From NCBI RefSeq assembly GCF_058153355.1, contig NZ_CM177019.1: 64,000 bases of DNA. One strand, 5' to 3'. The notes beneath the pieces are model-generated. The model did not search any database. It had not been told where the DNA came from and worked only from the letters and a program-made list of their open reading frames with translations. Below are positions 11,571 through 55,893 of this stretch, one piece after another (the first letter of the stretch is position 1; every line of letters begins with the position of its first letter). Both the position numbers and the translations under genes were made by a program.

Positions 11571-11885
11571 GGCCTGCCTCACTGTTTAACGGAAAAATGT
11601 GTAAAACACATTAACCGCCCGATCTTGCTTAAGCAATTGGTAGCCAGAGACATAAATACGAGGTAATAAGAATAAACAGGAGGAAAGGTGAAAAGAAACG
11701 ATAAAATCCTCCATTACGGAGGATTAAATTGATAATAAATCGGCTAAATCCCACAACTTACAGCAATTTCTCTATTTTTTAATTAATCCTAAAATAGTGA
11801 ACTCACACATTCAGAATAAAATTCTATATTCAATAAAAAATACAGAATAAATCAGTAATCAATATCTGACCTATTCTGCATTCAG
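11571..11885 (-). promoter_or_regulatory. ilvIH upstream regulatory region (Lrp-controlled promoter in E. coli)
   Basis: 315-bp AT-rich non-coding region upstream of ilvI; the function is assigned from established knowledge of ilvIH regulation, and individual sites were not mapped. Confidence 0.4.
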
Positions 11886-12830
11886 TTAGCGTTTGCAAAT
11901 TGAGACTAATTGCTCTTCCATCCACTGATGGCCTTTGTCGCGCCCGGCAGCTTCATGCCAGGAGAGATAACAGGTTCTGCTATTTTGTTTTAATGGCAGC
12001 GGTAATACCTGTAACTCTAAAGATTCAGCGAACTCTTCAGCCAGCCAACGCGGCGCAATAGCGACCAGATGCGTTTGCGACACCACGCTCAGTACACTCA
12101 TCATTGCCATGCCCTGATACGCGATACTGGCTTGTTTATCTACCGTGTCATACCACGGTTGACTAAATGACGCGAAACGATCGAGCGAAACTGCCGCATG
12201 TTGTTCGTTATAAACATCATGTTTCAGTAACGGGCCTTTAATTGTTGGATGATTTTTGCTGGCTACCAGCACCATTTCATCTTTAAATAATGGCACACTG
12301 GTAAATTCAGGACGATGGAAGTCTTCATAACTAATCACAAACTCCGTTTCCTGATAACGCAGTTGATGTTCAGTGTTCTGATTTAATGAAGACTTGAACA
12401 TAACATGTATATTTGGCGCAGTTTGCTCAATGTGATTATATATCTGCGAGGTCAGAATGCTGTCTAACGGACTGCAAACACAAAGATGAAATACACGTTC
12501 ACTGCTCGCGGGTTCAAAACCTGAACCTGGCAATTCATTTTGTACTAATTGCAATGCCTGACGAACTGAACCAAAAAGTTGAAATGCGCGAGCAGTCGGT
12601 TGAATGCCACGGCCATAACGAACAAAAAGCTCGTCATTAAACATCACCTTCAGGCGTGCAACCGCGTTACTGACCGCAGGTTGCGACATCCCCAGAACAT
12701 GAGCGGCACGGGTGATGTTTTGCTCCTGCATCACGGCATCGAAAACGGTTAATAAGTTGAGATCGACCATGCGTAGTTGTGGCTTGCTTAACTCCGCCGT
12801 CTCTGGTTGCTCTGTTTGTACCTCTGGCAT
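11886..12830 (-). CDS. leuO: LysR-family transcriptional regulator LeuO
   Basis: Canonical start [30 protein letters not shown] at 12830 (314 aa); the ORF-track 342-aa version is over-extended. Confidence 0.93.
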
Positions 12831-13488
12831 ACTTAACTCCACTGTCACACTTAACTCCCTTTCCCTTATTGGAATGCAGAGAAATAATCCTCGAGAATAT
12901 GATTTATCATGCATATAAAATAAGAAAAAGGAAAATGAGAAAAATTAGGAAAACATAAAGATACGGGTTCTTATAAAAACAGAACCCATTGCCGAGTAAA
13001 GAGTCATTTACCGCAGCATAATAATCCATAATGTTTTTGTTGCGAAAACAATCTAATCATAACTACCGCGAATACTCAATCATCCACAAAATGGATTAAA
13101 TGTGCTTTTTTAATAATTAATTTATATGTTTAATGCATTAATTCTTAACATTAATTGAACAATAATATTCACCAAATGAATATCAAAAAATTAGCAAAAC
13201 ATATAATTCAATACAAATCATCAAGATAGGTTTTGTAACGCGTGCATTTTATCCCCCTTTTCCTCGTTGATTAGATGCAAAAATTTATTCTGAAATATGT
13301 CAACCGATGAAAAGCGTCGGTGGTTAAGCAGAAATTAATATCGCTTGTTTTAACCACCGCAGCACAATTAGCTAATTTGACGAATGCAGAACTCACTCTG
13401 GCGGAACGTTTTTGTTGCGTCAGGGTTGACATCCGTTTTTGTATCCAGTAACTCTAAAAGCATATCGTATTCATCTGGAGCTGATTTA

Positions 13489-13575
13489 ATGACTCACATC
13501 GTTCGCTTTATCGGTCTACTACTACTAAACGCATCTTCTTTGCGCGGTAGACGAGTGAGCGGCATTCAGCATTAA
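13489..13575 (+). CDS. leuL: leu operon leader peptide
   Basis: 28-codon [31 protein letters not shown] with four consecutive CUA Leu codons, immediately followed by an attenuator hairpin and upstream of leuA. Confidence 0.85.
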
Positions 13576-13596
13576 GCCAGCACGCAGTCAAACAAA

Positions 13597-13626
13597 AAAC
13601 CCGCGCCATTGCGCGGGTTTTTTTAT
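13597..13626 (+). terminator. leu attenuator (rho-independent terminator)
   Basis: aaaaCCCGCGCcattGCGCGGGttttttt: a GC-rich stem followed by a T-run, just after leuL. Confidence 0.75.
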
Positions 13627-13667
13627 GCCCGAAGCGAGGCGCTCAAAAAGAGACAAGGACCCAAACC

Positions 13668-16330
<2,663 letters not shown>

Positions 16331-53134: not shown

Positions 53135-53905
53135 TTAAATGACTTTGCGAAGATTTTCAGCAAATGCGGCGATCTGTTCTTCGCCGTCGCCTTCAATCAC
53201 GATGCGCTGACGCTCGCGCTGTTTCGGTGCGGCAACCTGTTGTTCAGACCAGGCTTCCACGGCGTTAAAGCCAATATCCGCCGCCGACCATACCTGGACT
53301 GGCTTTTTCGCCGCGCCGAGAATGGCTTTCATCGAAGGAATTTGTGGGGAATTGATATCAGTGGAAACAGCAACAACCGCAGGCAGCGGAATGCTTAAGG
53401 TTTCTGTTTCATCTTCCAGTTCGCGCTCAACGGTGAGGGTATCTGCCGTCAGGGAGATAATTTTGCTGACACCGTTAACTGCCGGAATATTGAGGATTTC
53501 GCCCACCAGCAGACCAACCTGCTGGGCATAAAGGTCGGAAGAACCATCGCCACAAAGGATCAAATCAAAGCCTGCTTTCTGGGCGGCAGCAGCCAGTGCG
53601 GTCGCCGTTTGTTGCGGCAGTGCCTGCTCGAACTGGTCATCAATCACCACAATCAGTTCATCCGGGCCGCGCGATAGCACATCTTTACGCCCTTTGGCGT
53701 TGGTCAGGGCTTTACCGCCCACACTTAAGGCCGTCACCTGCGCCTCTGCTGCCTGTTGCTTTAGCTGGCAAGCCGCTTCAATAGCGTTGAGATCGTATTG
53801 GCTTATTTTGGCATCGGCTTTACTGAAGTCTAACGAACCATCAGCATTATTGACCGCAATATCCTGTTCATCAGGCACGCACTTATAGCAAGTAATAATC
53901 TTCAT
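53135..53905 (-). CDS. fixA: Electron transfer flavoprotein beta-subunit homolog FixA
   Basis: Canonical start [45 protein letters not shown] (256 aa); the ORF-track entry is over-extended. Confidence 0.95.

Positions 53906-55893
<1,988 letters not shown>

Follow-up and report, generated by a model that had tools for sequence, protein, structure and literature searches.

The 658 bp that separate leuO from leuL in this Escherichia coli chromosome (positions 12831-13488) serve, we are confident, as the regulatory spacer shared by the leuO gene and the leuLABCD operon, which are transcribed divergently. The spacer controls LeuO, a master H-NS antagonist that activates genes for CRISPR-Cas, efflux, acid stress and virulence; as a textbook example of gene control coupled to supercoiling, it is already in the literature. 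The leuO-leuL gap is known and much studied, and the sequence found in the window (the whole stretch of DNA that was analysed, 64,000 nucleotides) is an allelic variant of it. What the present analysis adds is modest: the length and AT-richness of the gap hold across the family, the short conserved blocks within it coincide with known operators, and it contains no overlooked gene or small RNA.

The boundaries of the gap are well defined. On its left lies leuO (11886-12830, minus strand; 314 aa from the annotated ATG), placed by the list of open reading frames and by the RefSeq annotation of near-identical genomes, with its start codon appearing as CAT on the plus strand at 12828-12830. On its right, leuL lies at 13489-13575 on the plus strand, with its ATG at 13489-13491, and leuA follows from 13668 on the same strand; the RefSeq annotation of matching E. 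coli genomes agrees. The leu leader (attenuator), which includes leuL, was identified at 13475-13624 on the plus strand by the Rfam family RF00512, Leu_leader (147.5 bits, E = 6e-34), and overlaps the last 14 nt of 12831-13488. The preliminary description gave about 660 bp between leuO and the leu leader, at 12831-13488; judged by the open reading frames, RefSeq and Rfam, these coordinates are exact and enclose the whole intergenic gap.

Of 5426 complete E. coli genomes, 5399 matched a 1-kb query (12700-13700); in 5372 genomes at least 80% of the query was covered at 95-99% identity. Matches of at least 99% identity occurred in only 168 of the 5399 genomes, compared with 5191 at 95-99%; the best match (99.9%) was to Z0117EC0005, a strain isolated from a dog in South Korea. 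The corresponding gap in K-12 is 659 bp and holds no annotated gene, in an annotation that includes even the 14-aa yabR. The alignment of the two gaps is colinear and free of large indels, with approximately 96-97% identity across the 1-kb query.

The composition of the gap sets it apart from its surroundings. With a GC content of 0.325, where the window as a whole has 0.527, the gap ranks lowest of the stretches of 658 bp (z = -4.6), and it encloses both the lowest-GC 200-bp stretch (13018-13217, GC 0.22) and the longest A/T-only run (22 nt, 13106-13127). The density of A/T tracts is 3.5 times, and that of TpA steps twice, the overall value for the window. The A/T string that had been quoted as an example of the long tracts begins at 13162 and contains the LeuO palindrome (13165-13183) described below. 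Curvature was computed with a dinucleotide wedge model; by this model the mean predicted curvature is 8.8 degrees per helical turn in the gap and 6.1 in the window, which places the gap at the 99.3rd percentile of equal-sized stretches, and the third-highest peak in the window (22.1 degrees per turn) falls at 13188. The longest stretch of the window without any open reading frame of at least 150 aa on either strand, 12915-13667 (753 nt), spans the gap together with the leader. The windowed GC and curvature calculation that had been proposed as a check therefore ranks the gap lowest in GC for its size and within the top 1% for curvature, and the extreme AT-richness with long A/T tracts and the label of least gene-like long stretch were both well chosen.

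Other AT-rich gaps are present in the window. The divergent gap between fixA (53135-53968, minus strand) and caiT (54379-55893, plus strand), at 53969-54378, is the runner-up in GC (0.30) and carries the second-highest curvature peak, 22.5 degrees per turn at 54196. The neighbouring leuO-ilvI gap (11583-11885) is likewise AT-rich (GC 0.31) and has a curvature peak at 11768; there, a near-identical genome annotates a 14-aa hypothetical protein at approximately 11687-11731 on the plus strand, which corresponds to yabR of K-12 (b4726).

For a comparative analysis, leuO neighbourhoods were taken from 80 species-level Enterobacteriaceae genomes, of which 79 loci include leuA. In all 79, leuO and leuA are divergent neighbours. 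The leuO-leuL gap measures 567-759 bp in these species (median 634, 5th-95th percentile 609-657), and its GC content ranges from 0.31 to 0.44 with a median of 0.344, compared with a median of 0.48 for leuO coding DNA at the same loci. One of the loci (L076), labelled Chryseobacterium sp. 18061, has an enterobacterial leuO-leuL-leuA arrangement whose layout is nearly identical to that of L074 (Citrobacter sp. 18056), apparently from one study; it is probably a mislabelled or contaminated assembly.

These comparisons bear on the alternative that the AT-rich DNA was left behind by horizontal transfer or a mobile element and is not a dedicated regulatory spacer. The composition of the gap does resemble that of foreign DNA, and two published screens mark the leuO locus as island-like or linked to acquired genes (PMC5797941, PMC3661553). 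However, the gap lies between the same two genes, with near-constant length and GC content, in 79 of 79 Enterobacteriaceae species examined, and no repeats, tRNA-type junctions or mobile-element reading frames were seen within it. Because position, length and GC content are shared by 79 species, the gap is ancient and vertically inherited within the family, and we give acquisition by transfer almost no credence.

While the length and composition of the spacer are retained, most of its sequence is not. In a MAFFT alignment of 76 non-Escherichia species, identity to the window is 0.2-0.5 over most of 12961-13360 and conservation is patchy at 13051-13080, whereas short blocks reach 0.8-0.95 identity at 12836-12862, 12896-12930, 12941-12960, 13359-13376 and 13423-13470. 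Only blocks of 15-35 bp are thus fixed across the family, while the central sequence diverges. The AT-rich core (13018-13217, GC 0.22) exemplifies the second class, being conserved in composition and length and divergent in sequence, with an identity across species of 0.3-0.5 that is near the expectation for unrelated AT-rich DNA. This pattern fits a platform that is read by its shape or composition, with operators embedded in it, rather than a sequence-specific one, and by analogy with published loci the core is likely to be the zone of H-NS/StpA nucleation and filament formation.

The conserved block nearest to leuL (13423-13470, plus strand) is the leuLABCD promoter and transcript start region, which is near-invariant across genera; the spacing and the start of the Rfam leader point to a -35 hexamer TTGACA at 13426-13431 and a -10 hexamer at approximately 13449-13454. 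Upstream of it, at 13362-13376 on the plus strand, is a marbox, GCACAATTAGCTAAT, a site for MarA, SoxS and Rob that starts approximately 64-65 bp upstream of the leu -35 hexamer. The sequence agrees letter for letter with the MarA ChIP-seq site leuL<>leuO of E. coli H10407, for which binding in vitro was scored +++ (PMC5684230), and in Salmonella MarA, Rob and SoxS all bind the corresponding site, GCACAATTAGCTAAA (PMC10268841). It matches 13 of 15 positions of the consensus gcactaattgctaaa quoted in PMC5684230 and is found within two mismatches in 58 of 81 sequences. The block at 13359-13376 had also been considered as an Lrp-like site (12 of 15 consensus positions matched), an assignment that was dropped because the block is the published marbox (PMC5684230, PMC10268841).

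Within the AT-rich centre, the interval 13165-13183 is a perfect 19-bp palindrome, ATATTCA-CCAAA-TGAATAT, in which all seven of seven positions are complementary, and it is the sole perfect 7-5-7 palindrome in the gap. The half-sites are identical to those of ATATTCA-TACTG-TGAATAT in the cas promoter gap of K-12. At the same place in its leuO gap, K-12 has ATATTCA-CCAAA-TCAATAT, with the same left half and a different right half. PMC6698644 describes the LeuO core site as a 19-bp palindrome that is almost identical in cas site II and leuO site I, and from this likeness we infer that 13165-13183 is the probable core of LeuO autoregulatory site I. The difference from K-12 lies at position 13177, where the window has G, K-12 has C and other Escherichia have A. 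It is the G that makes the core palindrome perfect and its half-sites identical to those of the cas promoter LeuO site, and the variant could change the strength of LeuO autoregulation in the lineage of the window. The element is present in all five other Escherichia sequences compared; in other genera no palindrome was found at a comparable position, with three scattered matches (12 of 14 positions) elsewhere in three genera.

A predicted SlyA site, TTAATGCATTAA, is located at 13130-13141 and is identical to the K-12 site predicted 305 bp upstream of leuO. SlyA shifts a 344-bp leuO-leuL fragment in electrophoretic mobility shift assays, and the predicted site is listed in the same study (PMC5797941).

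Closer to leuO, block C (CTTTATGTTTTCCTAATTTT on the leuO strand; 12941-12960, minus strand) is conserved across genera in the MAFFT alignment. Its TTTTCCTA, read on the leuO strand, fits every position of wwTTCykA, the core of the BglJ-RcsB or RcsB box given in PMC3950696. BglJ-RcsB activates the leuO promoter P2 from a site approximately 57 bp upstream of the P2 start (PMC5025477, PMC3950696), and block C, by its motif, is a candidate for this activator site. Block B (AATATGATTTATCATGCATATAAAATAAGAAAAAG, 12896-12930), with a mean identity of approximately 0.87 across genera, would correspond to the proximal promoter of leuO and the early part of its leader, and the dyad-like elements ATGAT..ATCAT and ATGCAT are found in it. 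At least two leuO promoters have been described, a distal P1 and a proximal P2 (PMC5025477, PMC3950696). A consensus scan found a match to a sigma-70-like promoter directed toward leuO at 13018-13046 on the minus strand (TTCGCA, a 17-nt spacer and TATTAT, with the -10 at 13018-13023), which we note as a weak lead, a candidate for the distal promoter. An 18-nt direct repeat was also observed, with copies AAAAATTAGGAAAACATA and AAAAATTAGCAAAACATA at 12940-12957 and 13186-13203 that are identical at 17 of 18 positions and lie 246 bp apart; one copy falls in block C and the other beside the LeuO palindrome, and the second copy is not conserved outside Escherichia.

The remaining block, block A (12836-12862, minus strand), covers the part of the leuO leader immediately before the annotated ATG, with a mean identity of 0.8-0.85 in the 76 non-Escherichia species, and contains two Shine-Dalgarno-like GGAG motifs. 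Following a GGGAG motif, and 18 nt before the annotated start, is an in-frame GTG (12848..12846, minus strand). Of 81 Enterobacteriaceae sequences, 76 have GTG or ATG at this place, the 18-nt spacing is exact in all 81, and each of the eight species that lack the annotated leuO start has ATG there. The E. coli sequence is repeated in tandem here, each 18-nt unit (12821-12838 and 12839-12856) being one of the two start contexts. It is possible, from this pattern of codons, that the GTG is an alternative or ancestral start of leuO, in which case LeuO may begin six codons earlier or be made as two isoforms. With the earlier start, the annotated N-terminus of E. coli LeuO would be six residues short.

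The preliminary description saw no open reading frame with a plausible ribosome-binding site in the gap. For independent reading frames this holds: a scan for a Shine-Dalgarno motif followed by at least 10 codons returned only the GTG at 12848 and a GTG at 12842, both on the minus strand and in the leuO frame, and no reading frame of at least 10 aa in the gap was intact across genera in the 79-species comparison. Peptide BLAST matches across species arose only where the DNA itself is conserved, namely at the promoter blocks and at the leu promoter read antisense. An ATG at 13384 is in frame with leuL and opens 63 codons (13384-13575, plus strand); the ATG precedes the leu promoter and none of 76 sequences from other genera keeps the frame intact, so that it is a chance frame.

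One short frame, the most persistent of those flagged by the peptide search, called for closer scrutiny. A nested frame of 19 codons at 12899-12958 on the plus strand runs antisense to the leuO leader across blocks B and C, and it could in principle encode a conserved small protein: if the leuO promoter and leader were transcribed in antisense, the product would be a very basic micropeptide, and its translation would add a coding layer to the control of leuO. Among 81 sequences, 55 have exactly 19 codons in this frame, and the N-terminal MIYHAY is widely kept. In pairwise counts of codon differences, which served as the coding test, the synonymous share of single-base differences is 0.31, compared with 0.08-0.19 in the other five frames. 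However, this excess is largely one recurrent TAT/TAC change counted in related species, and the third bases of ATT, CAT, GCA (which is four-fold degenerate) and the second TAT are almost invariant at positions where real genes are saturated. Such near-invariance across genera indicates a constraint on DNA and not on protein. Within Escherichia, moreover, every substitution in the middle of the peptide alters an amino acid, and so do both of the base differences between K-12 and the window. The start codon is replaced by ATC, ATT or another non-start in approximately 18 of 81 sequences, the frame falls below 19 codons in 18 of 81, no Shine-Dalgarno motif accompanies it, and it is unannotated in K-12, where the 14-aa yabR is annotated. 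A control frame on the opposite strand is free of stops in 40 of 66 sequences, and the plus strand is purine-rich and T-poor here, making stop codons rare by composition. We judge the frame to be incidental and a coding role for it very unlikely. A conserved small reading frame had been named as a finding that would argue against the regulatory description; across 79 species, none under protein-level constraint was found.

A structured RNA was considered in the same way. The gap could encode a small regulatory RNA, or a structured element in the leuO leader, and the E. coli leuO leader (12821-13010, minus strand) does fold better than its shuffles (-46.4 kcal/mol, z = -2.55); in a long predicted stem, a pyrimidine tract pairs with the Shine-Dalgarno region, which is rich in purines. 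Perfect local inverted repeats are also present at 13318-13359 (10-bp stem) and 12966-12988. Set against this, Rfam at permissive thresholds gave no match between 12831 and 13474, no terminator-like site was found in the gap, and RNAalifold applied to 79 species over 12831-13470 gave no conserved pairing, with at most three pairs per 120-nt stretch on either strand. As a positive control, the same scan recovered the leu leader/attenuator and its terminator. The individual candidates fared no better: the leuO leader stem has zero consensus pairs in the 79-species RNAalifold prediction, and the arms of the two hairpins carry mutations in K-12 and are lost in other Escherichia. An RNA of either kind is therefore extremely unlikely, and a conserved small RNA, the other finding named in advance as contrary, was sought with Rfam and RNAalifold in 79 species and did not turn up in 12831-13470.

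Taken together, these results leave a regulatory spacer, and its regulation has a long history. A promoter relay, an AT-rich gene silencer and a cis-spreading H-NS filament are reportedly the subjects of work by Fang and Wu in 1998, Chen et al. in 2001-2005 and Stratmann et al. in 2012. Such a history also frames the proposal that the gap is typical of H-NS-silenced, supercoiling-sensitive promoter relays, which is supported by orthology with the published loci of K-12 and Salmonella. H-NS silencing of leuO and its coupling to supercoiling in a promoter relay are published for these orthologues (PMC5025477, PMC6797219, PMC10981669). The silence of leuO under laboratory conditions is due to repression by H-NS and StpA (PMC5025477, PMC3950696), leuO is among the H-NS-bound genes in three independent genome-wide data sets (PMC5797941), and repression of the leuO region is relieved by invading transcription (PMC6797219). 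In Salmonella, leuO transcription rose more than 10-fold when a divergent cassette inserted upstream of the gene was induced; the authors credit the rise to supercoiling driven by transcription and relate it to Fang and Wu's promoter relay (PMC10981669). The sites of LeuO autoregulation lie more than 100 bp from the BglJ-RcsB box (PMC5025477, PMC3950696). LeuO also binds a leuLABCD promoter fragment, and this binding is enhanced by 2-isopropylmalate. For the strain of the window, we infer H-NS occupancy, supercoiling sensitivity and factor binding from these orthologous loci.

Promoter island 83898_426, leuL/leuO, is listed as H-NS associated (PMC3661553) and maps to approximately 12874-13299 of the window, an interval that takes in the AT-rich core. 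Our own sigma-70 consensus scan of the gap returned two promoter-like matches where 3.0 were expected; without an excess in this cruder scan, the promoter-island property was not reproduced, the published call having used a different and more sensitive algorithm. The high-affinity H-NS 10-mer TCGATAAATT was not enriched, with two matches in the gap at up to two mismatches.

From these elements a working scheme can be proposed. The curved, AT-rich centre would serve as a loading platform for H-NS and StpA, and the resulting filament over the AT core would hold the leuO promoters off during ordinary growth. Specific operators would lie in or beside the platform: the LeuO palindrome, the RcsB-type box, the SlyA sites and, by the leu promoter, the marbox. 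Because leuO and the leu operon point apart, transcription of the neighbours is expected to send negative supercoils into the spacer; whether it came from ilvIH, leuLABCD or an inserted cassette, such transcription would loosen the H-NS complex and turn leuO on. Activators, including BglJ-RcsB, SlyA and LeuO itself, would also relieve silencing. LeuO bound in the gap may in turn limit the spreading of H-NS toward the leu promoter, and protect or activate that promoter.

The closest known system is the leuO-leuLABCD region of K-12 and Salmonella Typhimurium, which is the same locus as the gap in the window, with the same flanking genes in the same orientation. K-12 has 659 bp for the 658 bp here and shares the marbox, the SlyA site and the position of the LeuO palindrome, and the differences between the window and K-12 are allelic, such as G for C at 13177, with none in kind. 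Among the E. coli promoter islands defined by the Ozoline group, the H-NS-associated island 83898_426 overlaps the gap (PMC3661553). The casA-cas3, bgl and fixA-caiT gaps are likewise AT-rich and curved; H-NS binds them, and activators of the LeuO type or others relieve the silencing. The LeuO half-sites of the cas gap recur unchanged in the leuO gap of the window. Those gaps, however, regulate other genes. The leuO gap is distinctive in that it controls the H-NS antagonist itself and is tied both to leucine biosynthesis and to the supercoiling that neighbouring operons generate.
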